This document shows positions 1,327-52,221 of a stretch of DNA of 64,000 nt, in pieces; the first letter of the stretch is position 1; each line of letters opens with the position of its first letter. The DNA lies in IMG/VR virus record IMGVR_UViG_3300033067_001807, positions 1 through 64,000 of that record; one strand, written 5' to 3'. Under the pieces are notes generated by a model. That model did not search any database and was not told the DNA's origin. It saw only the letters and a program-made list of their open reading frames with translations. Position numbers and translations under genes: made by a program. This DNA comes from a virus (lineage: Duplodnaviria; Caudoviricetes).

Positions 1327-3204
1327 TTAAAATTTATTTATGAATTGTTCAAATGTCATAATTTCAGCTGAAACGGTTTCGGCAACTACTCCCATTTTAT
1401 CTTCTAACTTTGACTTTAGTTCATTGTACATTGGGTGAATTGCCTTAGGTGTCATTGATTGAAATTCTTTCTCATTTCCATTTAACATTGCATTTCTAAC
1501 TTTAGTTGCCGAAATTTCATCATCAGTTCTTGGAATTTCAAATAACGCAAAATCAGCTCTTACATTTAATTGGTCTCTATATGAGTCATTGTTAACCATG
1601 TATCCATAAGCTTTCATTCTATCGCTTCCAGTTCCCCATAACACAGGCTCATATTTTGGTCTTACCTCATTAAACATTATATCTATGGCCGCGCTTGGCA
1701 CAACAAATATTTCCTTTAGAAAAGGATATTGTTTTTTAACCTTATTAAACATTTCGATTTGAGTGTTTTCCTCATAAGGTCTACTAAATTCATCACCTTT
1801 TTTAACTGTCTTTGATTTTACCAAAAATACAACTACAGGATATCCATTCGCTTTGTACATTGTTTCAAGTACCTTTGCATGTCCAAGTGTAAATGGTTGA
1901 AATCTACCAACAAACATATTTACGGGTTCTTTACCCTGTTCCATGTGTTTAACAGTTAAAGCTTCGTTTAAGTTCACAGATGCTTTAATCTTATTATGTA
2001 ACATAAAGTTGTTATAGTCATATACCGCATTTTCATCGGTATTTTCTACAAATATTTTTTGATTTATTTTATCAATAAAATCGTTCATTCTTGCAAGAGT
2101 GTCTTCGTCAATTAAATCAGTTGCCTTAGTTCTCTTTTTTCTAAATGAACTTAAAATCATTTTCAATAATTCTGACAATATCTCATTGTCAACATATTTT
2201 AGCGTCTTTTCATTTTTGATGTATTTTGAATTTAATCTAAAAGATTGTGCTGTAGAAAATTCTGCACTTTCAAAATTAACGCCAATATATTTTGATGAAT
2301 TTTTGTCAATATATCCATTAAATAGGACAGACATTATTTCTAAGTATCTATAATCAGCATGCTCCTCTTCGATTGTTACATCATCGAGGTCATACATTGT
2401 AACATATTCTAGAAAGTCTGTAACTGCAATCTGATATGTGTGACTTGAAGCTCGCATATCTCTTTTTTCTGCACCTGCTCTTAAAAAATCTTCAAGCTTA
2501 AAGGACTTCATTGTTTTTCCATCAATGAAATTAATAACTAATCCATCTATTTCACTGTCTAAATTCGAATTAAGTGCAGTGGCAGTTATGCTTGGATTAA
2601 AAATTTTAAATATTGCCTTGGTAAAACTTTCTTTGTCTGCTGTTTCAGTTAAATAGTCAAATGAATCAGCAAATTCTCTGTCTCCCATTGCCAATAATTC
2701 TAATAGGTTTTCTCTCTGTTCTTGTGAAAGATAACCATCGAATATTACTGGCGGTGTTTGCACATCCATGATTTTCGCCCATTTATTTAAAATAAGTGGA
2801 TCGTTTATAGTTTTTCTAACTTTGCCACCTTCGCTTAATTGGTGGATATGTGTTAAAATTAAATTATTTGTAGGTGTTATTTCATAGACAATATCAGATG
2901 CCTTTGTTTCAGGCAAGTATTCAAATCCAAACATCCAATCTACTGGAAATTGTGCCTTAGTATCTTTTGATAAACTTTGTAAATGATTAATGGCCATTTC
3001 ATATAACGAAATTATGGTTCTATCTATCATATTCAACCTTTCAGCCGTTGCAGATTTATAAAATTCAAATCCATTTATATTTCTTCTAAAAAGAAACGTG
3101 GGTGCTGCAACCTTTTCGGTTACTAGTACCCTATGTTTTAACATTTCAATAAAATTTTCTCTATTGGTCTCGTTAAAATATTCTCTTATTTTTTGTAATG
3201 CCAT
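1327..3204 (-). CDS. Degenerate ATP-dependent ligase-like domain fused to HIGH-family (cytidylyltransferase/NMNAT-like) nucleotidyltransferase
   Basis: C-terminal MFVGRFQPFTLGH, GTGSDR and ISATKVR motifs. N-terminal TEKVAA (motif I-like), FGFEY and IDGLVINF...FKL. Confidence 0.7.
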   Translation of the reverse strand: MALQKIREYFNETNRENFIEMLKHRVLVTEKVAAPTFLFRRNINGFEFYKSATAERLNMIDRTIISLYEMAINHLQSLSKDTKAQFPVDWMFGFEYLPETKASDIVYEITPTNNLILTHIHQLSEGGKVRKTINDPLILNKWAKIMDVQTPPVIFDGYLSQEQRENLLELLAMGDREFADSFDYLTETADKESFTKAIFKIFNPSITATALNSNLDSEIDGLVINFIDGKTMKSFKLEDFLRAGAEKRDMRASSHTYQIAVTDFLEYVTMYDLDDVTIEEEHADYRYLEIMSVLFNGYIDKNSSKYIGVNFESAEFSTAQSFRLNSKYIKNEKTLKYVDNEILSELLKMILSSFRKKRTKATDLIDEDTLARMNDFIDKINQKIFVENTDENAVYDYNNFMLHNKIKASVNLNEALTVKHMEQGKEPVNMFVGRFQPFTLGHAKVLETMYKANGYPVVVFLVKSKTVKKGDEFSRPYEENTQIEMFNKVKKQYPFLKEIFVVPSAAIDIMFNEVRPKYEPVLWGTGSDRMKAYGYMVNNDSYRDQLNVRADFALFEIPRTDDEISATKVRNAMLNGNEKEFQSMTPKAIHPMYNELKSKLEDKMGVVAETVSAEIMTFEQFINKF

Positions 3205-3229
3205 TTTTATATTTATAGAATTATTTTAT

Positions 3230-4516
3230 TTATCTGCCGTATTTAATAATACCTAGTAGTGAATTTATTGCGGCGAATGTTCCTGTAAGCTTCATTGTCT
3301 TTCCTTTATAAACAAAAACAATACCTTCAGTTGGAATAATTGAGTCTATTCCTCCGATTCTATCAAGTCTTTCAAGTTCTGAAATTACTTTATCGACTTG
3401 TGGGGCTTCTCCTCCTTTTTTAATTTTATCTGCCTCAGATCTAATTTGTGCATGCAATCTTTGCATCTCGACTGCAGGGTTTGCTGCCACAAAGTTACTT
3501 GCATTTTTTAAGATAATACTACCCAACTCCAGAAATAAATCTTCAAATGGTCTAATATTTTCTTTATATTTCTTTTTAACGTCTTCTTTGTCAAATTTCT
3601 TAATTAATTCAGCCTGATCTTTTCCAAGTTCTTTATCTAAACTTCTTAAGTTAAGTGTTTTCTTGTCATCGTATGCCCATCTAAGTAGTAGACCCTCTTT
3701 AAAGTTTTGTGATAACGCTGGGAAATTTTTGTCAATTTGCTCTCTCCACCACATTTCATGATATTTAGAAACTTCATCAGCATCTGTTAATTTATAACGA
3801 TTTTTAAGTTCCTCTACCTTTGCAATAAATTTACCTTTGTTTTCACTGAAATTTAAGTCCTTACCTATTTGAATAATTTGAGGAGGGATTACTGTAAATA
3901 CCTTTCCTATATGTGATTTAACGTCCTCTAGGGCCTTTGCAATTGAGCGTGCATATTTATCTTCAGATCCAATAATATTACCCTCACCGTCAGTTATTTT
4001 AATCCCATGGAACTGTATAACATCTCTATCATAATAGATTACATTTGGATTTTTAGAATAAATAAGCTCCATGTTCATGAAGTTTTTACCATTGTTAAAT
4101 GCCTCTAAATCATTTGGTGATAATTTAATAAGTAAGGTAGCTAAATCATCTGCTGCAAATTGAAATGTGTCCTGTACTAATTTACTAGGATGTCCTTCAA
4201 ATTTTTGTTTAAACGCAGAAAGATCCATTGGATTTTTTAGTTCGGTTTTATTTCTTGCAAATTTAACTTGACCATCCTGTACTGTAGCAAAAACGTTTTG
4301 ACCATCGGTTTTTTCAGTAGGTTCCTTTTCAAATGTTAAATTACCGGATAGCCCTGCCTCAATGATTTTTTTAAAATCCCCAAAAGTTAAATCATGTTCA
4401 TCAAATGGATGTGACATATGCCCTGCTGCTCCGCCTTCAAGTAAAAGTTGCTCATGTAATTTAACTTCGTATTTTTCAGTTAAAAACTGATTAAAATTAA
4501 GGATTCTTGTTTTCAT
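3230..4516 (-). CDS. ATP-dependent ligase/nucleotidyltransferase-fold protein (RNA ligase-like) with capsid-targeting-like N-terminus
   Basis: TEKTDG (KxDG motif I), NMELI, EGIVF...KLTG (motifs IV/V-like). Start moved to ATG 4516 (MKTRILNFNQFLTE) because the upstream extension overlaps a hairpin/promoter. Confidence 0.6.
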   Translation of the reverse strand: MKTRILNFNQFLTEKYEVKLHEQLLLEGGAAGHMSHPFDEHDLTFGDFKKIIEAGLSGNLTFEKEPTEKTDGQNVFATVQDGQVKFARNKTELKNPMDLSAFKQKFEGHPSKLVQDTFQFAADDLATLLIKLSPNDLEAFNNGKNFMNMELIYSKNPNVIYYDRDVIQFHGIKITDGEGNIIGSEDKYARSIAKALEDVKSHIGKVFTVIPPQIIQIGKDLNFSENKGKFIAKVEELKNRYKLTDADEVSKYHEMWWREQIDKNFPALSQNFKEGLLLRWAYDDKKTLNLRSLDKELGKDQAELIKKFDKEDVKKKYKENIRPFEDLFLELGSIILKNASNFVAANPAVEMQRLHAQIRSEADKIKKGGEAPQVDKVISELERLDRIGGIDSIIPTEGIVFVYKGKTMKLTGTFAAINSLLGIIKYGR

Positions 4517-4533
4517 ATTGTAAATATAATAAA

Positions 4534-4563
4534 AATACCTGACATAATAAAACATCAGGTATT
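4534..4563 (-). terminator. Hairpin AATACCTGA...TCAGGTATT plus T-run, followed by TATATTTAC promoter-like box
   Basis: 9-bp inverted repeat at 4534-4542 and 4555-4563 between two genes. Confidence 0.6.
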
Positions 4564-4579
4564 ATTTATTTAAATTATT

Positions 4580-6298
4580 TTAAGATTCTTGAGAGATTTC
4601 TTCGTTCGTATCTGATTCTCCTAAAGAACCTGTTAACATTCCAACGCATGCACCATAATCTCCATCACATTTTTTAAGAATTCCATCTGCAACTTCTCCA
4701 GCTTTAGCTTCGTCAAAGTCAGTACCGAACGCTTTTTTCAAAACACTCATTGCATATTCTTTAAATTCATCGTCAGATTTGATTTCTGCTTCATTGACTA
4801 GGGATTCAAATAAAGTTAATTCATAGCGATATGCATATGATTTATCAGCTGTACTTTTTGATAGCTTCTTAGTAGCAAATCCCATAGATTTTAATTTCTT
4901 TTCGATTTCATCTCTACGTTGTTTATCTTCACATCTAAAAATTAAACGATCACTATTTCCATGAGAACCTTTTTCAAGTTCAACACTATTTGCGCCAATT
5001 CCGTATGGGTTATTTTCATACTTATCTCTAATTTCTTCAAATGACATAGCTTCATTAACTAAAGATTCTTTGATTCCTAATTCTTGTAATTTTCTAACAG
5101 GTACACCTTTCTTTTCTTCATCATCCGGATTAGGATATGCTAATAAATTAGCAGCAATTAATCTTTTGTAGATTTCTGCTTTAACTAATCCAAAATCAAT
5201 TGAGTCACTTGAATTTTCCCAAGTATCTGCGACATGTTCTGGATCGATCCAACCATATCCTGACTTGATATTTTTAACCATGTCGTTAAAATCGGCGTCA
5301 AATCGCTTAACAGCGGCCTCTGAGATTACTGACTCATTTTTTTTTACTGAATCCTTTAACGCATCTAATTCTTTTTTCAATTCCTTAGGTAGACCTCTTT
5401 CGATTCCCCAATTAAAACTTGCGTTAACTAACATATATAATGGTAAGTTCTCATTTCTTTTGCCATAAGGCGAAGATTCAATCCATGATAAATAATGGTC
5501 AGCTAATTCCTTTGACATTTTAATACCTTCTGCCTCTGTTGAATCACCGTCAACGATTCCTTTAAGTAATTTTTTAGCCATACCATGTTTTCCTTCAGTA
5601 ATCACAGTTTCGAACATTTTAGCTAATTTACTTTTTTTAAGAGTCATTGTAATAAAATCTACAATTTCATCAAATTCAAACATTTCATCATATAAATCTT
5701 TGAAAATAATCTCGGCCGATTTTAGCAAGGCATCCATTGCCTTAGTATTATGAAGTCCGTCCATTCTATCAAATGCGCTTCTGCTAATTGCCTCATCTAA
5801 ATGTTCTTCAACTTTATAAGTTTCTCCTTCAAATTCAAATTCAGATTCTCCTGCCTCTTTTGCTTTTCTAACTGCATCTCCAAAAGCATTACCTTCTTCA
5901 ATGGATTCCTTAACGCCAGTATCTTTAATTGTTACTTTATAAGTTTTACCATTAAATTCGAATTCATCTTTACCTTCTGCTTTGGCCTTTCCAGCAGCAT
6001 ATACAAATGCATTACCTTCTTCTAATTTTTTAGGTTCTCCTAATTTATTGATTTCGTCTTCAATATCTTCTGCTTCATCTTCTGAAACATTACCGAACAT
6101 TTTACTAATTAGTGCCTGTTTTGTATCTTCTTCCAATTCAGTTAGAGAGGTTACTCCCATTTCATCAAGGATTTCTCCAATTTTACCAACAGTTTCCTGT
6201 CTTTTTGCGTTGTTTTCTTCTCGTAGTTTCATTGCAGTTTCCTGGTTTTTAACCTCAGTAAAACTTTTAAATGAAGAGATTTTGTTAACTTCTGCCAT
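4580..6298 (-). CDS. Modular putative internal-head polyprotein (572 aa)
   Basis: Seven protease-site-like linkers at E94, E135, E169, E235, E327, E416 and E503; duplicated EEGNAF module; late-promoter-like motif upstream. Confidence 0.75.
   Translation of the reverse strand: MAEVNKISSFKSFTEVKNQETAMKLREENNAKRQETVGKIGEILDEMGVTSLTELEEDTKQALISKMFGNVSEDEAEDIEDEINKLGEPKKLEEGNAFVYAAGKAKAEGKDEFEFNGKTYKVTIKDTGVKESIEEGNAFGDAVRKAKEAGESEFEFEGETYKVEEHLDEAISRSAFDRMDGLHNTKAMDALLKSAEIIFKDLYDEMFEFDEIVDFITMTLKKSKLAKMFETVITEGKHGMAKKLLKGIVDGDSTEAEGIKMSKELADHYLSWIESSPYGKRNENLPLYMLVNASFNWGIERGLPKELKKELDALKDSVKKNESVISEAAVKRFDADFNDMVKNIKSGYGWIDPEHVADTWENSSDSIDFGLVKAEIYKRLIAANLLAYPNPDDEEKKGVPVRKLQELGIKESLVNEAMSFEEIRDKYENNPYGIGANSVELEKGSHGNSDRLIFRCEDKQRRDEIEKKLKSMGFATKKLSKSTADKSYAYRYELTLFESLVNEAEIKSDDEFKEYAMSVLKKAFGTDFDEAKAGEVADGILKKCDGDYGACVGMLTGSLGESDTNEEISQES
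5810..6025 (-). repeat. Two tandem intragenic modules EEGNAF..A..KAK..G..EFEF.G.TYKV
   Basis: Residues about 92-123 and 133-163 of ORF 4580-6298. Confidence 0.85.
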
Positions 6299-6330: not shown

Positions 6331-7839
6331 TTATATATCTCCATCAAAATTGACTTTCTTAATAGTGTAATCAAACTTCTCCTGTTTATATATAGCCTGT
6401 CTTGCCTTGCCATGTTTATATAGGTAATTATCCCATTCAATTGTTCTAATATCGTCTACAAAATCTACGATTAGTACTTTATCCTTTGATTCATGTTGGC
6501 GTAATCCTCGACCAATTGATTGTCTAATAATTACCTCTGACTTGAAGGATTCTGTAAAAAATATATTGTGAATTTTTTTAATTGAGATTCCTGTTGAAAA
6601 AGTTCCATAACTTGCAACGATTACGATTTCCTCACCGGCTTCCATCTTCTTTTTATATTCTTCCCTAATATCGGAAGCGGTTCCTCCATCTACATAGAAA
6701 ACACGTTTATTTGTTTCCTGTCTTAGTTTTTCGTATAATCTCTGACCATGTTCAATTCGATGGAAAAGTACAAGTGAGTTTCTTGGAACTCTACCTATAA
6801 CACTTGATATAAAATCTAATCGTGCCGCATTATTAATCACAAAATTCTGTTCAAGTGAAAAAACATCCTTATTTTCATATTTATTTTGTGCTAATTCCAT
6901 TAGGGCAGTTTTCTGTTTATCGGTTGCATAGTCCATTTCAATAACTTTAACCGCACATTTTGCGATGTGACCTTCGTCCTGTAAAAAGCTTGCCTTAACC
7001 TCTGTGATTACAGGGCCAGTTTGACTCATCAGGGTTAATTTATCTAATGTACCATCCTTTGGAATTGTACCCGAAAGTCCAAATCTATATTTTGCATTTA
7101 TACATTTTTGTAAAATTGTCTTGATACTTGCTGATTTTGCCTTATGTGTTTCATCAACGATTACGGCATCAAATTCTGCAAAATAGTCTGCATCTTTTTT
7201 AATAAGAGATTGATATGTACCTATGATAATATTTTTATTGCCTTTAATTTTTTGACCTGCAAAAATCTGTTGAATTCTTAAGTCAATTCTATTTCTAAAG
7301 TTGTATTCATGAAAATCCTCATGTGCCTGTACAACCAGTGAAACATTAGGTACTATAAATAAAATCTTTTGGGCTTTATTTTTTTCTAACATATATGCAA
7401 TTGTTAGAAAACTGATTAGGGTCTTACCCGCTGATGTTGCAAGCTCTGCAAGGCATTTTCTAAATTTTAGAATATTGTATGCTGCCTCAACCTGATAGTC
7501 CCTAGGAGTTATCTTTGAACCCTCAAATAGGCCATATGCCCATGTTTCAAATCCTTCTGCTGAAATATCGGGGTCGATTAATCTTTTAATTCCATTTATT
7601 TTTAATTCAAAACGATAATCCTTACATACGCTCATTACATATCGCCATAGTCCTGCAGGAATCCATTTATCATCTTTAATATAAGATACATAACCATCCC
7701 ACACACCTCTTTTGACAAGTGGATTAAATCTCCACGAGTCAATTCGTTTAGTTAAAGAAATTCTAATTTGCTCTAACTCAAGCTCAGTTGATTCATCAAT
7801 TCTTAAAAATTGATTGTCTTCTGTTAATGTTAAAATCAA
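6331..7839 (-). CDS. uvsW: UvsW-like superfamily 2 DNA helicase
   Basis: PRDYQ, ATSAGKT, IVDETH, GLSGT and QSIGRGLR motifs; next to uvsY; TTG start (start uncertain). Confidence 0.9.
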   Translation of the reverse strand: MILTLTEDNQFLRIDESTELELEQIRISLTKRIDSWRFNPLVKRGVWDGYVSYIKDDKWIPAGLWRYVMSVCKDYRFELKINGIKRLIDPDISAEGFETWAYGLFEGSKITPRDYQVEAAYNILKFRKCLAELATSAGKTLISFLTIAYMLEKNKAQKILFIVPNVSLVVQAHEDFHEYNFRNRIDLRIQQIFAGQKIKGNKNIIIGTYQSLIKKDADYFAEFDAVIVDETHKAKSASIKTILQKCINAKYRFGLSGTIPKDGTLDKLTLMSQTGPVITEVKASFLQDEGHIAKCAVKVIEMDYATDKQKTALMELAQNKYENKDVFSLEQNFVINNAARLDFISSVIGRVPRNSLVLFHRIEHGQRLYEKLRQETNKRVFYVDGGTASDIREEYKKKMEAGEEIVIVASYGTFSTGISIKKIHNIFFTESFKSEVIIRQSIGRGLRQHESKDKVLIVDFVDDIRTIEWDNYLYKHGKARQAIYKQEKFDYTIKKVNFDGDI

Positions 7840-8295: not shown

Positions 8296-8514
8296 TTAAA
8301 ATAATGAGTTTCCTTTTTTATTGTCCTTAATGTAAACTGAACTTTTAAACTTTGCTTTAAGTTTTGGTTTAGTCATTGTAAATTGCTTACCCTCGTGCGA
8401 AATAATGGTTGATGTGAAATCAATAATCAGCTTTAGGTTTTTTCTCCTATTTCTTTCGTCTTCAAAGTCCTCGAATTGTTCTTCGATCATTTGTAAAAAA
8501 TCTTTTTTTATCAT
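8296..8514 (-). CDS. Hypothetical protein
   Basis: ORF tightly packed in the operon; overlaps the primase stop. Confidence 0.6.
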   Translation of the reverse strand: MIKKDFLQMIEEQFEDFEDERNRRKNLKLIIDFTSTIISHEGKQFTMTKPKLKAKFKSSVYIKDNKKGNSLF

Positions 8515-9635
8515 AGGTGGTATGCATCAAGTTTTGAGTCCGTAAAATATTCAACCAACTTATTTAAACATTTATTTTTAGTAAGCCATGCTGCTATAAC
8601 TAAGTCGTTTAAATCACCTATTTGTTTAGGATATTTATCTCTATTAATTTTATCAATACTCGCGAGATAGGTTTCCCAATCCCTTTCAATAGAAGTTTCT
8701 TTTAAAAACTTTTCCCATATAAATATCTTCCTACCTCTTTTTAGCTTCTCCATCATTTTCTTTTTACCGGTCGTATCGTTGTCAAACATATAACGGATGG
8801 TTGGAATCTCATCAAATTCTTCAGTTGATCGACCTGCGGTTGCAAGTCCAATTGAATTTGGAATAAACATAGAATCAATGGGACCCTCGAACATCGTTAC
8901 TTCTCTTTCAAAATCAACCATCATAACGTTAAATAATGTCGAAACCTTCTTTGCACTTATAAGTTCTTCTTCAGATATTACAAGTTCTTTTTTTGCCTCT
9001 TCGTATATTTTTTCAATATCGTATGTCAGGTATCTTGAATTTGCCCTTTTAACAAGTGATCGAGTTTGAAATCCTATTATTTTTTCCTTTGGCGCTAAAT
9101 TTAAAACAACTATCCTTTTGTCCTTTGGAGAATACATAAATCGATCGAGCTTATTTGACAATAATCTATTTCTTAAATAAAAGAATGCTGGATCTCCTGG
9201 TTGAATTTCATGAAAATCAAACCATTCCTTAATTTCAGTTCGAGTCGGGGCTAAATCATGCACCAGCTTAAATACATCATGTTCTAAAACTTCAACATGA
9301 TTTGTTTCTAATTTATGTTCCTGTATGTAATCAATTACTTGAATAGAATCATCTGTACTTTGAAATTTTACATGATGTTCCTTAAGAAGTTGATATGCAT
9401 TAGAGTGGGTGCTGCAATTAAAACAGTGATACTGTAATGTGTCCCAGTATAAATTTCCACGTTTCTTTTTATGGTCAGTTGTAGAGTCACCACAAAATGG
9501 GCATGCCATAGTAAGTCTACCTGGCATTTCCTTAATCATTTGTTTAGAAGGCTCGCTATGTGCTTGTACAATAACTTGCTTTACTAAACTTCTGATTTTT
9601 GATTTTAATTCTTCTGTGATTTTTTGACCTGTCAT
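8511..9635 (-). CDS. gp61: T4 gp61-like DNA primase
   Basis: CPFCGD...HCFNC zinc finger; TOPRIM FEGPIDSMF and FDND. Start moved to ATG 9635. Confidence 0.88.
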   Translation of the reverse strand: MTGQKITEELKSKIRSLVKQVIVQAHSEPSKQMIKEMPGRLTMACPFCGDSTTDHKKKRGNLYWDTLQYHCFNCSTHSNAYQLLKEHHVKFQSTDDSIQVIDYIQEHKLETNHVEVLEHDVFKLVHDLAPTRTEIKEWFDFHEIQPGDPAFFYLRNRLLSNKLDRFMYSPKDKRIVVLNLAPKEKIIGFQTRSLVKRANSRYLTYDIEKIYEEAKKELVISEEELISAKKVSTLFNVMMVDFEREVTMFEGPIDSMFIPNSIGLATAGRSTEEFDEIPTIRYMFDNDTTGKKKMMEKLKRGRKIFIWEKFLKETSIERDWETYLASIDKINRDKYPKQIGDLNDLVIAAWLTKNKCLNKLVEYFTDSKLDAYHL

Positions 9636-9639
9636 ATAT

Positions 9640-9668
9640 ATTATATAGTAAAAAAGGGTCAAGTTTAC
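9640..9668 (-). promoter_or_regulatory. Class A promoter GTAAAC-N15-TATATAAT (primase)
   Basis: One of seven exact AAAC-N15-TATATAAT copies. Confidence 0.7.
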
Positions 9669-9699: not shown

Positions 9700-10620
9700 T
9701 TAAACTCCTAAATCGTTTAAGAAATCATCTAAATCGTCCGAGTCGCTTGCTCCCGATGGAGATGATACCATTTCACTTGGAAATTCAAAATCAGATGCAG
9801 ATTCAGTAACGCTTTCAGTTTTAGCCGCTGGTCTTTTAGTTGCTGGTTTTGAAATTACAGAATCCATAGAGTCTCCTGGATTTAAATAGTTTCTTAAGAT
9901 ACTATTCACAAAATCTCTAGTTTCTTCATCCCATGCCTTGTATTCATAAGGTTCTAAGCTTGGAGCTGAGTCTAACTCAGATTTAATAGAAGCCATAACT
10001 TCTTTGGTTCTCTCTGCTGGAGATCCACCCATGTCAATAGCGCTAGTTGAAGATGAGAATTTAGATTTATCGTAGTTATTAAAATCTCCTTGGCGAGTAA
10101 TAATTAACTCAAAGTTTTTACCTGCAAATAGGTCAAATACTTGAGTTGGTTCACCAAACGCCGGTTTTAATTCTTCATCAATTTTTTCTTTGATTTTATA
10201 ACCAAATTTAAAAATCTTATATTGTCCTTCTAAATCTGGGTTTTGAGGATCTTTGATAACTTTTACTAGAGCGAAGTATTGCTCACGTCTTTTAAGTTTA
10301 TCACTCATTTTACGGTCAACTGCTGAATCACTTTTACGTAATTTGAAAAATACATCTGCAATTGGGCATTTTTCACCAACAGTTGAAGGTGAGTCTACCA
10401 TTTTACCATCACCGTTTGCATTTGTCAACCAGTGTACGTATTTTTTTACTAAAGAGTTTCTTGGATTTGCTGGATTTGGAACGAATCTAATGATTGCTTT
10501 GTAAGTTCCATCTTTACCATCATCAGCGGTTGGTTTGTAAAGGTCACTTCCTGAAGAAGCTTGTGTTTCATGTGTGTCTACGTCTGCCACACCTAAGTTA
10601 AAAATGTCAAAATCTGCCAT
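9700..10620 (-). CDS. gp32: T4 gp32-like single-stranded DNA-binding protein
   Basis: YKAIIRFVP, CPI, FKFGYKI and YDKSKF motifs; acidic tail DDLDDFLNDL. Confidence 0.92.
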   Translation of the reverse strand: MADFDIFNLGVADVDTHETQASSGSDLYKPTADDGKDGTYKAIIRFVPNPANPRNSLVKKYVHWLTNANGDGKMVDSPSTVGEKCPIADVFFKLRKSDSAVDRKMSDKLKRREQYFALVKVIKDPQNPDLEGQYKIFKFGYKIKEKIDEELKPAFGEPTQVFDLFAGKNFELIITRQGDFNNYDKSKFSSSTSAIDMGGSPAERTKEVMASIKSELDSAPSLEPYEYKAWDEETRDFVNSILRNYLNPGDSMDSVISKPATKRPAAKTESVTESASDFEFPSEMVSSPSGASDSDDLDDFLNDLGV

Positions 10621-11688: not shown

Positions 11689-12057
11689 TTAGATTCTTTT
11701 ACCAAGAGCAGCACCTAAAGCAGCACCAACAAGTCTTGAGGTTAACATGTCATACATGATTCCATCTCTAATACCTAAAATATTTGCAACTGTCTTTCCA
11801 ACTGTCTTTCCAAGAGCAAATCCTGCAAGTCCACCGAATATACTTCCTAAAATACCTTCATTAGTTAATTCCTCATTGAAACGACTAACGTCATAAGATC
11901 CATCTTCCAATTGATATGTTGCAGTAAATTCATCAAGCGCAGCATTAACTTTAGCTTCAAGTTCATCGCTCCATTCGGTCTGTAGAGATTCATTTAATAT
12001 CTGTAACTCTGCTTCAGTAATATTTTGTTCGTTAATGTAATCTAAAAATGTTTTCAT
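11689..12057 (-). CDS. Small protein with capsid-targeting-like tag, acidic pro-region and C-terminal glycine-zipper helices
   Basis: MKTFLDYINE start; LTNE|GILGSIFGGLAGFALG...LVGAALGAALG; GATATATAA just upstream. Confidence 0.7.
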   Translation of the reverse strand: MKTFLDYINEQNITEAELQILNESLQTEWSDELEAKVNAALDEFTATYQLEDGSYDVSRFNEELTNEGILGSIFGGLAGFALGKTVGKTVANILGIRDGIMYDMLTSRLVGAALGAALGKRI

Positions 12058-24659: not shown

Positions 24660-24714
24660 GCCTCTTTTTATTTATAGTATATATCCTCGGAATTAAGGAC
24701 CAATAAAAAGAGGC
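24660..24714 (-). promoter_or_regulatory. 13-bp perfect inverted repeat enclosing a late-promoter-like motif; downstream arm covers the initiation region
   Basis: gcctctttttatt (24660-24672) pairs with aataaaaagaggc (24702-24714). Loop contains GGATATATAC; TATAAATA spans the loop/arm junction. Confidence 0.7.
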
Positions 24715-35788: not shown

Positions 35789-35800
35789 TTTATTTATATT

Positions 35801-38359: not shown

Positions 38360-39169
38360 TTATAGTAGGGAATCTAGTTTTGCTTGTAACTTTTTTAAGG
38401 TCTTTTGATAATCTACGATTGATTTTCTTTTCCATTCAATATTCATTTGTTTCCAAGAAGCAATTCTTTTAGCGATTCCATTATCACGCTCTGAATTATA
38501 GAATGACTCGTCATTGTTGTAGTTTTTAGCAGCATCTCTACTTACAATTTCTTTCCATGTTGGCCATTCATGCCAAGACTCTCTAGGATTATCTTTAATA
38601 GATTGAATGATTTCAGCATCAGTTAATTTAGAATTTGTTTCAGCATCTTCAGTTGCTCTTTTAATTCTAACTTCGTAGCTCTGAATTTCTTGGTTAAGTT
38701 TTTCAAGCTTAGACATTTTCTTAATCTTCTCAGAATATTCTTTTGAAATTTCACTGGCACCGGTTTTAGGGATATTTGTCTTAACAATATATCTATAGTG
38801 AAGTCTTTGGATGTTGTGACCACCTGCATAAATTGCTTCAGTTACAAAACTATATGTAGTTCCTTCTCTTTGGATTTGAGAAGATATTTCAATATTTCCT
38901 TTAGCACTTTTACTAACATTAAGAGAAAGTAACAAATCAGTGGGTTGTGTATATGCTTCAACTGCTTTAACCATATCAAAGATTAAATTTAATCTTGCCA
39001 TTTCTCTGTCATATTTAGTAAACTCCTGTTTAAATGTTTCAGTAAACCATTTTTCGGTAGCTGCTAACATTTCTACAATAGTAGGTTCCATCGAATCCAA
39101 AATAACATTTACAATATTATTTTGTTTGGATTCATTAACGAATTGATTATATGTTTTAAATTTACTCAT
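38360..39169 (-). CDS. Hypothetical protein with capsid-targeting-like N-terminus
   Basis: MSKFKTYNQFVNE|S; C-terminal coiled coil. Confidence 0.65.
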   Translation of the reverse strand: MSKFKTYNQFVNESKQNNIVNVILDSMEPTIVEMLAATEKWFTETFKQEFTKYDREMARLNLIFDMVKAVEAYTQPTDLLLSLNVSKSAKGNIEISSQIQREGTTYSFVTEAIYAGGHNIQRLHYRYIVKTNIPKTGASEISKEYSEKIKKMSKLEKLNQEIQSYEVRIKRATEDAETNSKLTDAEIIQSIKDNPRESWHEWPTWKEIVSRDAAKNYNNDESFYNSERDNGIAKRIASWKQMNIEWKRKSIVDYQKTLKKLQAKLDSLL

Positions 39170-51033: not shown

Positions 51034-51510
51034 TTATTCTACATCCTCAGCATCAACTGCATCTTTTACCTGCTTAGACTCATTGATTTTTTTAGAGTAT
51101 GCTTCGGCCATTTTATTTAAACATGCTTCAAATGCTTCGGTTTCCATGTCACCTTTCATTTCGTTAAGTGCATTAACTCCCATTTTTGCAACTAATGCAG
51201 CATTTTCAGCCATATAAGTTTCTACGGTATGGTCATCATGTGCATCTTCGTCCCATGCCTGTGCCTCTTCCATTACTCTCTCGTAACATTTTTCTAGCAT
51301 TTCTGAAACGGGAATAGTTGGATTAATTCCATCTCCTTTTCCTTGAATTGGAGTTACTTTTTCTTCAGATTCTTGTACCTCTTCAGCTTCTTCTTCAGCC
51401 TCTTCAAAATCCTTGTCATCAGGTTCTGCCATTGAAGTTAATTTAGTTTCTATCTCCTCTGCTCTGTCCATTTCAGAAATAAAGGTTTCAAATGATTTAA
51501 TACTTGCCAT
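51034..51510 (-). CDS. Very acidic protein with capsid-targeting-like N-terminus
   Basis: MASIKSFETFISE; about 45 D/E versus 15 K/R in 158 aa (hand count); GATATATAA upstream. Confidence 0.75.
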   Translation of the reverse strand: MASIKSFETFISEMDRAEEIETKLTSMAEPDDKDFEEAEEEAEEVQESEEKVTPIQGKGDGINPTIPVSEMLEKCYERVMEEAQAWDEDAHDDHTVETYMAENAALVAKMGVNALNEMKGDMETEAFEACLNKMAEAYSKKINESKQVKDAVDAEDVE

Positions 51511-51879: not shown

Positions 51880-52221
51880 TTAATCTTCTGATTTATATGG
51901 TAGTTTTTTATCATGTCCACCATCTCTAACTTCTTTAGCTAAATCGGCATCAGCCTTGCCCCATGTTCCTGCACCTTTTTCTAGAAATGCGTTTACTCTT
52001 GCATGTCCCCAAGCCTCTTGACTCATTCCTTCATAGTGACTTGAATTCCATGCTCCCATTCCTCTTCGCATAACTGCATTTAAAATTCCAATCGGTACAC
52101 CAGATTCTTTACTCTTTTTAGCAAGAGATTTATTTAAATCCGGATTTTCTAACTTTGCTCTAGAAGTTTCTTTGTCATCTTTTTCTGTCAAAAATTCTTC
52201 AAATAACATAAAATGTTTCAT
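51880..52221 (-). CDS. Conserved phage protein (DUF5824-like) with capsid-targeting-like tag
   Basis: MKHFMLFEEFLTE; KKSKESGVPIGILNAVMRRGMGAW..H....QEAWGHARVNAF pattern. Confidence 0.65.
   Translation of the reverse strand: MKHFMLFEEFLTEKDDKETSRAKLENPDLNKSLAKKSKESGVPIGILNAVMRRGMGAWNSSHYEGMSQEAWGHARVNAFLEKGAGTWGKADADLAKEVRDGGHDKKLPYKSED

Follow-up and report, generated by a model that had tools for sequence, protein, structure and literature searches.

Two neighbouring genes of the ligase fold on a marine phage contig

We analysed the first 64 kb (hereafter, the window) of an 81.5-kb viral contig, IMG/VR record IMGVR_UViG_3300033067_001807, whose completeness is estimated at 27%, and focused on two consecutive genes near its start, referred to here as open reading frame 1 (ORF1) and ORF2. 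Both lie on the minus strand at the coordinates given by a first-pass annotation of the DNA, and all the motifs quoted there were found where it had placed them (Table 1). ORF2 encodes a stand-alone protein with a predicted RNA ligase fold, and ORF1 joins a second predicted ligase-fold domain (ORF1-N) to a C-terminal nucleotidyltransferase of the HIGH superfamily (ORF1-C) that resembles nicotinamide mononucleotide (NMN) adenylyltransferases (NMNATs).

The ATG of ORF2 at position 4516 is kept in its relatives, while a longer frame starting at 4555 is not. These relatives number more than 1,000 at the 90% cluster level, and the ORF2-type domain is found in 1,820 clusters at the 50% identity level (E <= 1e-3). 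ORF2 itself had no match in Pfam (E 0.1), PHROG or NCBIfam, nor in the PDB by sequence. When an AlphaFold (AF2) model built from 51 sequences (mean predicted local distance difference test score [pLDDT], 88) was searched with Foldseek, the top 40 matches were exclusively ligases, though weak ones (best E 4.5e-3). VIA-align gave a Z score of 9.1 (185 aa, 3.9 Å) against the Naegleria RNA ligase NgrRnl, and of 8.4, 8.3 and 8.0 against Trl1-LIG, REL1 and T4 Rnl1, respectively, and a Foldseek-independent search of 48,161 PDB chains returned polynucleotide ligases as all of its best 13 chains.

We counted motif conservation over 51 relatives with identities down to 33%. Residues E68, K69, D71, G72, R88, E150, E397, G398 and G412 were invariant, and K409 was present in 50 of the 51 sequences. 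The TEKTDG and EGIVF..K motifs, described as intact in the first-pass annotation, are thus indeed preserved, motifs I, III (E150) and IV being invariant and motif V being kept in all relatives but one. In its fold and in motifs I, III, IV and V, ORF2 conforms to the covalent nucleotidyltransferase superfamily. Three of the 51 relatives matched the RNA ligase profile PF09414, weakly (E ~1e-3), and hhalign comparison of the ligase parts with the lineage's own PF09414 ligase was not significant.

In one sub-clade (L044, L046-L062 and L071), the ORF2 orthologue carries an extra conserved N-terminal segment of ~33 residues, ending Y-x-S-E, ahead of the leader described below. An in-frame fusion of ORF2 to a big upstream polyprotein in some relatives was considered and dismissed, as only the extra 33-residue N-terminal segment is present there.

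A second ligase fold, with an altered motif I, is joined to an NMNAT-like domain in ORF1

Relatives of ORF1 number several hundred, and every complete one has the same two-part architecture. As for ORF2, no match to residues 1-415 was found in Pfam (E 0.1), the PHROGs, NCBIfam or PDB sequences. The model of residues 1-420 (pLDDT 81) matched T4 Rnl2 in Foldseek with an E value of 1.2e-6 and a probability of 1.0, and VIA-align gave Z scores of 10.8 (216 aa, 4.4 Å) against Trl1-LIG, 10.6 (180 aa, 3.1 Å) against NgrRnl and 10.1 against T4 Rnl2. In the aligned ranges, K31 of ORF1 and K69 of ORF2 fall where ligases have their catalytic lysine, both in a strand-loop-strand hairpin. The alignments with Trl1-LIG reach residue ~319 of the ORF1 model and hence extend into its helical domain, which comes after motifs IV and V in ORF1-N, while the helical module of ORF2 comes before them. 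The ligase fold that the first-pass annotation had assigned to both N-terminal parts is therefore borne out by structure searches, in which every match was a polynucleotide ligase and RNA ligases ranked first.

Across 32 ORF1 relatives, motif I reads EK[IV][ASQ][AGS][PA]. Residues E30 and K31 are invariant, Asp occurs in none of the 32, and position 34 is Ala in 22, Gly in 6 and Ser in 4. Further on, K236 is invariant, D220 is Asp in 30 and Glu in 2, 30 of the 32 have G221, and the motif III acid (E/D95) is kept. ORF1-N thus has the nucleotidyltransferase fold but departs from the KxDG form of motif I. The term "degenerate" applied to it on first pass was correct as far as the lost Asp-Gly is concerned but overstated, as the change is limited to these two residues, with the lysine and motifs III, IV and V being retained. 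ORF1-N and ORF2 were not recognisable as paralogues (BLASTP E 1.7; hhalign probability, 1.7%); only fold and motif logic are common to them.

Both proteins share with the ATP-dependent RNA ligases (T4 Rnl1, fungal Trl1-LIG, T4 Rnl2, kinetoplastid REL1 and Naegleria NgrRnl/Rnl5) the predicted nucleotidyltransferase fold, a lysine in a beta-hairpin at motif I and the order of motifs III, IV and V, and they carry a helical accessory domain, as do Rnl1, Rnl2 and Trl1. Unlike in these ligases, however, sequence similarity was not detectable and neither PF09414 nor PF09511 was matched; moreover, ORF2 has its helical module before motifs IV and V and an extra conserved GGAxGHMxHPFD segment, and ORF1-N has EKxxAP in place of KxDG.

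The C-terminal part of ORF1 belongs to the HIGH superfamily. Residues 430-570 match Pfam PF01467 (CTP_transf_like) with an E value of 7e-7 and a score of 29.9 bits (cut-off, 21), the F-T-L-G-H442 and I-S-A-T-x-V-R motifs typical of the superfamily are invariant among ORF1 relatives, and phage "cytidyltransferase" PHROGs are matched as well. The best PDB matches were 1f9a and 2qjo, both NMN/nicotinic acid mononucleotide (NaMN) adenylyltransferases, and a profile of the wider family gave the same result, with phosphopantetheine adenylyltransferase (PPAT) next. These matches agree with the description of the domain as NMNAT-like in the first-pass annotation. Both NMNAT equivalogs of NCBIfam were nevertheless missed by a wide margin, as TIGR01527 (archaeal NMNAT) scored 30.6 bits (cut-off, 181) and NF002243 scored 30.9 (cut-off, 127). 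By sequence, ORF1-C appears nearest to the archaeal/NadM NMNATs and is thus NMNAT-like rather than a proven NMNAT.

The phage NAD+ salvage enzymes of NARP2 and NARP3, namely, NadM/NatV (NMNAT-Nudix) and NadR-like (NMNAT-kinase) proteins, share with ORF1-C the GRFQPF-x-x-GH-type and ISxTxxR-type motifs. NMNATs as nearest solved structures and a Nampt/NadV-like gene in fuller relatives are further likenesses to phage NAD+ salvage. Unlike these enzymes, ORF1-C is fused to a ligase fold instead of a Nudix or kinase domain and has Thr in place of the first His. Phage HIGH domains described so far are fused to Nudix or kinase domains, not to a ligase fold, and we know of no described Rnl family tied to a HIGH nucleotidyltransferase.

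Between the two parts of ORF1 lies a linker predicted to be disordered, which contains a conserved motif whose E414 and L416 are invariant, and N413 and A415 nearly so, among relatives. N411 to A415 (NLNE|A) lie in this linker, and, as noted on first pass, the NMNAT/cytidylyltransferase-like domain comes next.

Table 1. Positions of ORF1, ORF2, their predicted parts and other genes of the window
Feature	Coordinates	Strand	Basis or remark
ORF2	3230..4516	minus	428 aa; predicted stand-alone RNA-ligase-fold (covalent nucleotidyltransferase) protein
ORF2 residues 1-14, leader resembling T4 capsid-targeting sequence	4475..4516	minus	Pattern at residues 8-14, kept in relatives
ORF2 residues 21-40, hhxE then GGAxGHMxHPFD(D/E)	4397..4456	minus	Conserved N-terminal domain boundary
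ORF2 motif I, T67-E-K69-T-D71-G72	4301..4318	minus	Predicted AMP-accepting Lys; beta-hairpin in model, as in ligases
ORF2 residues 223-390, all-helical module	3347..3850	minus	Ahead of the strands of motifs IV/V, an unusual order; secondary structure of model
ORF2 motifs IV/V, E397-G-I-V-F ... K409-L-T-G412	3281..3328	minus	Conservation in 51 sequences
ORF1	1327..3204	minus	625 aa; ligase-fold domain, helical domain, linker and NMNAT-like HIGH domain
ORF1 residues 1-240, nucleotidyltransferase (ligase) fold	2485..3204	minus	Foldseek and VIA-align on model
ORF1 altered motif I, T29-E30-K31-V-A-A34	3103..3120	minus	Lys kept, Asp-Gly lost
ORF1 motif IV/V equivalents, I219-D220-G-L-V ... S-F235-K236-L	2494..2553	minus	Conservation in 32 relatives
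ORF1 residues 242-385, helical domain after nucleotidyltransferase fold	2050..2481	minus	Model; as in Rnl1/Rnl2/Trl1-type ligases
ORF1 residues 387-424, predicted disordered linker	1933..2046	minus	pLDDT below 50 (residues 387-420)
ORF1 linker motif, N411-L-N-E414-A415-L	1960-1974	minus	Conserved; candidate L/I-x-E protease site
ORF1 residues 425-610, HIGH-superfamily NMNAT-like nucleotidyltransferase	1375..1932	minus	GRFQPF-T-L-G-H442 and I-S-A-T-x-V-R motifs
ORF1 C-terminal M-T-F-E-Q-F-I-N-K-F, tag-like motif at the very end	1330..1359	minus	In 37/37 aligned relatives
Other proteins starting with an ORF2-like leader	11689-12057, 38360-39169, 51034-51510, 51880-52221, and ORF 1-1290	minus	Pattern match
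Acidic flanking ORFs	1-1290 and 4580-6298	minus	Either side of ORF1/ORF2; polyprotein-like
UvsW-type helicase	6331-7839		Adjoins the ORF1/ORF2 locus
Primase	8511-9662		Near the ORF1/ORF2 locus
gp32-like single-stranded DNA-binding protein (SSB)	9700-10620		Near the ORF1/ORF2 locus

The two domain types are near-obligately paired across phages

We found 80 IMG/VR loci with ORF1. ORF2 lay upstream in 74 of them, and the remaining 6 had too little upstream DNA, so that the co-occurrence of the two genes in relatives, expected from the first-pass annotation, held in 74 of 74 testable loci. Among 80 further IMG/VR loci, encoding more distant ORF2-type proteins, the NMNAT-like domain was part of the same polypeptide in 52 of 53 complete ORFs and lay 3 kb away in the remaining one; the 15 loci seemingly without it were all cut by contig ends. 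Pfam CTP_transf_like was detected in 30 of 47 long relatives. Microcystis phage Mel-JY01 encodes a 639-aa fusion annotated as "cytidylyltransferase like protein," a 462-kb huge-phage record has the pair in split form, and the best structural matches in BFVD were "cytidyltransferase-like" phage proteins (TM 0.87). The pairing of the ligase-fold and NMNAT-like domains is thus near-obligate and usually takes the form of one fused protein, of which ORF1 and ORF2 are the split form. Of the observations by which the first-pass annotation could be overturned, two were testable here, and in both cases the opposite was found, namely, a ligase-fold match and co-occurrence of the genes.

Rare ORF2 relatives have additional fusion partners, namely, a P-loop kinase (Zeta_toxin/AAA_33), a 2H phosphoesterase (2_5_RNA_ligase2), a CCA-type nucleotidyltransferase (PolyA_pol) with HD, ROS_MUCR and DUF5661. 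Elsewhere, in different lineages, multi-domain proteins of 600-1900 aa with disparate enzymatic modules end in the ORF2-type domain; they resemble the phage polyvalent proteins in this respect, but the hub domains MPTase and ArdC are mostly absent from them. The survey of polyvalent proteins (Iyer et al. 2017, PMC5512222) reports no association of their 2H domains with RNA ligases, and a term search of it returned no HIGH-nucleotidyltransferase/ligase architecture.

Literature searches on DUF6267 (see below), on Mel-JY01 and on a described ligase-cytidylyltransferase fusion returned nothing relevant. The pairing is so far uncharacterised and appears in databases only as "cytidyltransferase-like" or "hypothetical." It counts among the more common enzyme architectures of large phages that lack an explanation. 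It spans marine T4-like phages, huge phages and Microcystis phage Mel-JY01, and leads from a protein atlas and from motifs suggest that it likewise includes a gene pair of cyanophages.

Proposed activities of the pair

We propose that ORF1 and ORF2 represent the split form of a widespread phage pair in which an RNA-ligase-fold lysine nucleotidyltransferase works with an NMNAT-like HIGH nucleotidyltransferase, a reading that, taken as a whole, we regard as evenly poised. ORF2 would most likely be catalytically active, Lys69 taking AMP from ATP for transfer to a 5'-phosphate end. Its target would most probably be RNA, because the nearest folds are RNA ligases and because the partners in the rare fusions include a P-loop kinase, a 2H phosphoesterase and a CCA-type nucleotidyltransferase. 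ORF1-C would most likely transfer AMP onto a phosphate monoester, with NMN + ATP -> NAD+ as the leading candidate reaction. Since motif I of ORF1-N is altered apart from its lysine, this domain would probably carry out an altered or partial reaction or bind the shared substrate.

The gene content of five partial related records bears on the source of NMN. A Nampt/NadV-like phosphoribosyltransferase (NF006629, 547 bits) is present in two of the five, the two fullest, and in both of these the ORF1 orthologue is the sole CTP_transf_like gene. The Nampt-like enzyme of these fuller relatives could supply NMN to ORF1-C, which would amount to NAD+ rebuilding of the NARP2 type, NARP2 consisting of Nampt and Nmnat (bioRxiv 10.1101/2024.02.11.579819).

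The near-obligate pairing and fusion across very divergent phages is a classic sign of a shared pathway, and it could also mean that the HIGH domain is no metabolic NMNAT at all but shares a nucleic-acid end as its substrate with the ligase-fold domain. In one version, an NAD+-dependent RNA ligase would draw its AMP from NAD+ that the HIGH domain supplies or regenerates; in another, the HIGH domain would build an activated or capped 5' end of the A(5')pp(5')N type (App-RNA or NAD-RNA), to be sealed or processed by the ligase-fold domain. Such coupled chemistry would be in line with the HIGH domain scoring far under the NMNAT equivalogs, and NMNAT chemistry, in which AMP is placed onto a 5'-phosphate to give a 5'-5' pyrophosphate, corresponds formally to step 2 of ligation. 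NAD+-dependent ligases have an NMN-binding domain Ia ahead of motif I, to which the conserved extra N-terminal His/Asp-rich motif found before motif I in ORF2 may be analogous. On the other hand, ORF2 retains all the residues for ordinary ATP-dependent self-adenylylation, the Nampt-like gene of the relatives fits ordinary NAD+ salvage, and to our knowledge no RNA ligase uses NAD+ and no HIGH enzyme acts on polynucleotide ends. We consider a joint action on one nucleic-acid end improbable.

The altered motif I raises a different question, namely, whether one or both ligase-fold domains, above all ORF1-N, could be non-catalytic and serve as nucleotide- or RNA-binding scaffolds or as regulators of the HIGH domain. 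T4 Rnl1 and DNA ligases require the Asp and Gly of motif I, and in ORF1-N relatives Asp is lost throughout and Gly in most (26/32); the absence of sequence similarity to active ligases points the same way. The conservation of E30, K31 and K236, together with that of the motif III and IV acids across the family, is however hard to explain without catalysis or at least nucleotide binding, and ORF2 has the full set of motifs. We regard a non-catalytic role as unlikely.

Other ligase genes of the five related records narrow the roles left to the ligase-fold/NMNAT-like pair. All five have a gp30-type ATP DNA ligase; two have a PF09414 RNA ligase adjoining an AAA_33 kinase, and a third has the ligase with no detectable kinase. 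LigA (PF01653), PF09511 and Tpt1 (PF01885) were found in none of the five. Several roles are thereby rejected or weakened: ORF2 and ORF1-N as replicative DNA ligases, given the separate gp30-type ligase, the lack of an oligonucleotide-binding (OB) domain and the better match to RNA ligases; a role as the only RNA-repair ligase of the phage, as relatives also have the PF09414 ligase beside the AAA_33 kinase; a Trl1-like pathway requiring Tpt1/KptA and NAD+, for want of PF01885 in the five relatives; and an NAD+-dependent LigA of the lineage as consumer of NAD+, for want of PF01653.

The PF09414 ligase and AAA_33 P-loop kinase lie in the records of loci L043 and L079 (G001, 108.4-110.3 kb; G002, 207.5-209.3 kb) and form a classical RNA-repair pair that is separate from ORF1 and ORF2. 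In these two records, the PF09414 ligase has the motif K-I-H-G and an N-terminal OB-like part; L089:167-1303 is the ligase that stands alone.

With its unnamed part shown to have an RNA ligase fold, the family becomes a testable hypothesis in which NAD+ chemistry is tied to the chemistry of RNA ends and possibly to capsid delivery. If the two activities are coupled, they would constitute a new reaction type in phage counter-defence; if they are independent, a large group of "auxiliary metabolic" phage genes would still gain a function.

Possible packaging and cleavage of the two proteins

In phage T4, gp21 cleaves after the Glu of L/I-x-E, and a 10-residue leader sends internal proteins into the head (PMC9026906). 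ORF2 starts with a leader resembling it, which follows the pattern [FYW]xx[FYW][ILVM]xE (aromatic-x-x-aromatic-aliphatic-x-Glu). This pattern occurs 12 times in the 78 proteins of the contig, and 6 of these occurrences fall within the first 24 residues, where 0.7 would be expected (~9-fold enrichment). ORF1 has no capsid-targeting-like leader at its N-terminus. A gp21-family protease (PF03420) is encoded in four of the five related records.

Candidate cleavage sites are present as well. In ORF2, L24-L-L-E27 precedes G28-G-A-A-G-H33, within a segment whose G28, G29, G32, H33 and H36 are nearly invariant, and residues 18-30 have a pLDDT below 50. The residues before GGAxGH read h-h-x-E in ORF2 and in most relatives, and the same hhxE/GG junction also stands before the ORF2-type domain in long fusion proteins. 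In distant fusions, a further x-E-[SGA] often precedes hhxE, echoing the linker motif of the two genes that flank ORF1 and ORF2. In its strict form, E-[ST]-h-h-x-E-[AGS], this linker motif occurs four times in ORF 4580-6298, three times in ORF 1-1290 and in no other protein of the 81.5-kb contig.

The proteome of CsCl-purified virions of cyanophage S-SZBM1 includes gp140, detected with two peptides, and gp139 (PMC9146016). Comparison with a family profile built here identifies gp140 as a homologue of the HIGH domain (E 3.5e-17).

Under our proposal, both proteins would be loaded into the capsid by way of a T4-like leader, and a gp21-type protease would trim them at hhxE before G28 of ORF2 and before A415 of ORF1. 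ORF2 resembles the T4 internal proteins and Alt, which have a capsid-targeting sequence and undergo gp21 processing, in its leader, its candidate L/I-x-E sites and the gp21-family protease of its lineage. Unlike in these proteins, the candidate cargo would consist of nucleotidyltransferases, and the tag-like motif of ORF1 is C-terminal and has no Glu. Packaging of ORF1 and ORF2 is thus plausible, although we put it forward tentatively. The packaging and cleavage proposed on first pass draw circumstantial support from the leader enrichment, the protease of the relatives, the resemblance of hhxE to the flanking linker motif and the presence of gp140 in virions. Packaged proteins could then act at injection, and the HIGH domain may be released by cleavage.

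The position of the genes allows for another account. The first-pass annotation had placed them inside a cargo locus, but the locus lies at the replication module, with UvsW helicase, primase and SSB genes, and not in a purely structural block. ORF1 and ORF2 might accordingly be ordinary cytoplasmic enzymes of the early or middle phase, an extra RNA-repair ligase set plus NAD+ salvage, neither packaged nor cut, with the leader and hhxE being structural features. Their cyanophage counterparts are found beside gp41, mazG and gp61; the hhxEGG junction is a conserved part of the domain even in short stand-alone relatives, with the Glu sometimes missing; and jumbo phages often have several non-redundant RNA ligases together with NAD+ synthesis genes (PMC7824862). 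Against such an account stand the enrichment of the leader pattern at N-termini, the confinement of the strict linker motif to the two flanking genes, the homologous HIGH protein in purified cyanophage virions (PMC9146016) and the position of the fusion gene just upstream of the terminase and portal genes in other clades, one of which has it between recombination genes and terminase/portal. We find it rather doubtful that the two proteins are ordinary enzymes of this kind.

Packaging and coupled chemistry could also be combined, the pair being a single virion-delivered machine that acts on one substrate, either as an NAD+-dependent or NAD+-regenerating RNA ligase or as a builder of an NAD- or App-type 5' cap or activated end at the start of infection. 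We rate this combination as very unlikely; if true, it would add a new class of counter-defence or takeover enzyme, in well over 1,000 phage protein clusters and possibly including the cyanophage DUF6267 pair.

Several points weigh against our proposal that a ligase-fold nucleotidyltransferase and an NMNAT-like partner work together and are loaded and trimmed. The evidence for the ligase fold consists of predicted models with moderate Z scores (8-11), and neither ORF2 nor ORF1-N could be linked at the sequence level to any characterised ligase. NMN is only a best guess as the substrate of ORF1-C, the scores being far under the equivalog cut-offs, and Nampt was not found in this 81.5-kb, 27%-complete contig and in only two of the five partial relatives. 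Pairing itself is not really explained, because an NMNAT of NAD salvage needs no obligate ligase partner, and a canonical RNA ligase with its kinase and a DNA ligase are already present in relatives. With regard to packaging and trimming, the residue before GG is Cys or Met rather than Glu in some relatives, which speaks against a universal Glu-specific cut at this position, and the DUF6267 protein gp141 of S-SZBM1 is absent from the published virion list (PMC9146016).

An ORF of a related record (L089:1887-2747, plus strand) starts M-K-K-I-K-L-F-E-Q-F-I-A-E, which we take to be very close to the capsid-targeting leader of T4 IPIII. Its product is a candidate packaged enzyme, judged by eye to be possibly of the ATP-grasp type.

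A similar gene pair in cyanophages

T4-like cyanophages have a conserved gene row consisting of a hypothetical gene, a DUF6267 gene and a "cytitidyltransferase" gene, adjoining gp41 and mazG, with gp61 also near. The DUF6267 (PF19782, "T4-GC 71") and "cytitidyltransferase" ("T4-GC 190") genes resemble ORF2 and ORF1 in that a protein of ~400 aa is encoded directly upstream of a CTP_transf_like gene near replication genes. DUF6267 proteins have, like ORF2, an HxxHxxD motif followed by K-x-D-G (K-W-D-G-A-P), and some members of the pair start with the same leader pattern as ORF2. Unlike ORF1, the cyanophage HIGH protein is encoded by a separate gene without a ligase-fold N-terminus. A protein atlas places ORF2 beside clusters bearing DUF6267 (score 0.97). 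The DUF6267 profile, however, had no match in the contig even at an E value of 10 and none among the 51 ORF2 relatives, and hhalign comparison of the ORF2 family with DUF6267 was not significant. Kinship between ORF2 and DUF6267, suggested by the atlas, the motif order and the common neighbour, is therefore a lead and not a result.

The S-SZBM1 gp140 protein (L171:4679-5767) starts M-R-F-R-Q-F-I-I-E-A, and the DUF6267 protein of Stenotrophomonas phage DLP_6 (L172:2959-4194) starts M-M-K-F-T-Q-F-L-A-E, both like the T4 capsid-targeting leader. A protein of ~440-457 aa is encoded 3' of the cyanophage cytidyltransferase gene in P-HM2 (L173:4782-6098) and in S-SZBM1 (L171:5795-7168, gp139); it is annotated "possible cytitidyltransferase" in P-HM2 and matched none of the profiles built here.

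Genomic setting

The source phage is an uncultured marine phage, a large T4-like myovirus with a genome of roughly 300 kb, since the closest fuller records measure 160-236 kb at 59-77% completeness. The window has a G+C content of ~31%, and nearly all of its genes lie on the minus strand. Beyond the helicase, primase and SSB genes, there are tail-fibre and baseplate genes.

An octamer, TATAAATA, stands 5 nt 5' of the ATG of ORF1 (3210-3217, minus strand). Its reading as a late promoter for ORF1 gained no support, the 23 occurrences observed in the window against 15.6 expected being no significant enrichment. The same TATAAATA also lies directly 5' of several structural genes, for example at 35791-35798 and 24669-24676.

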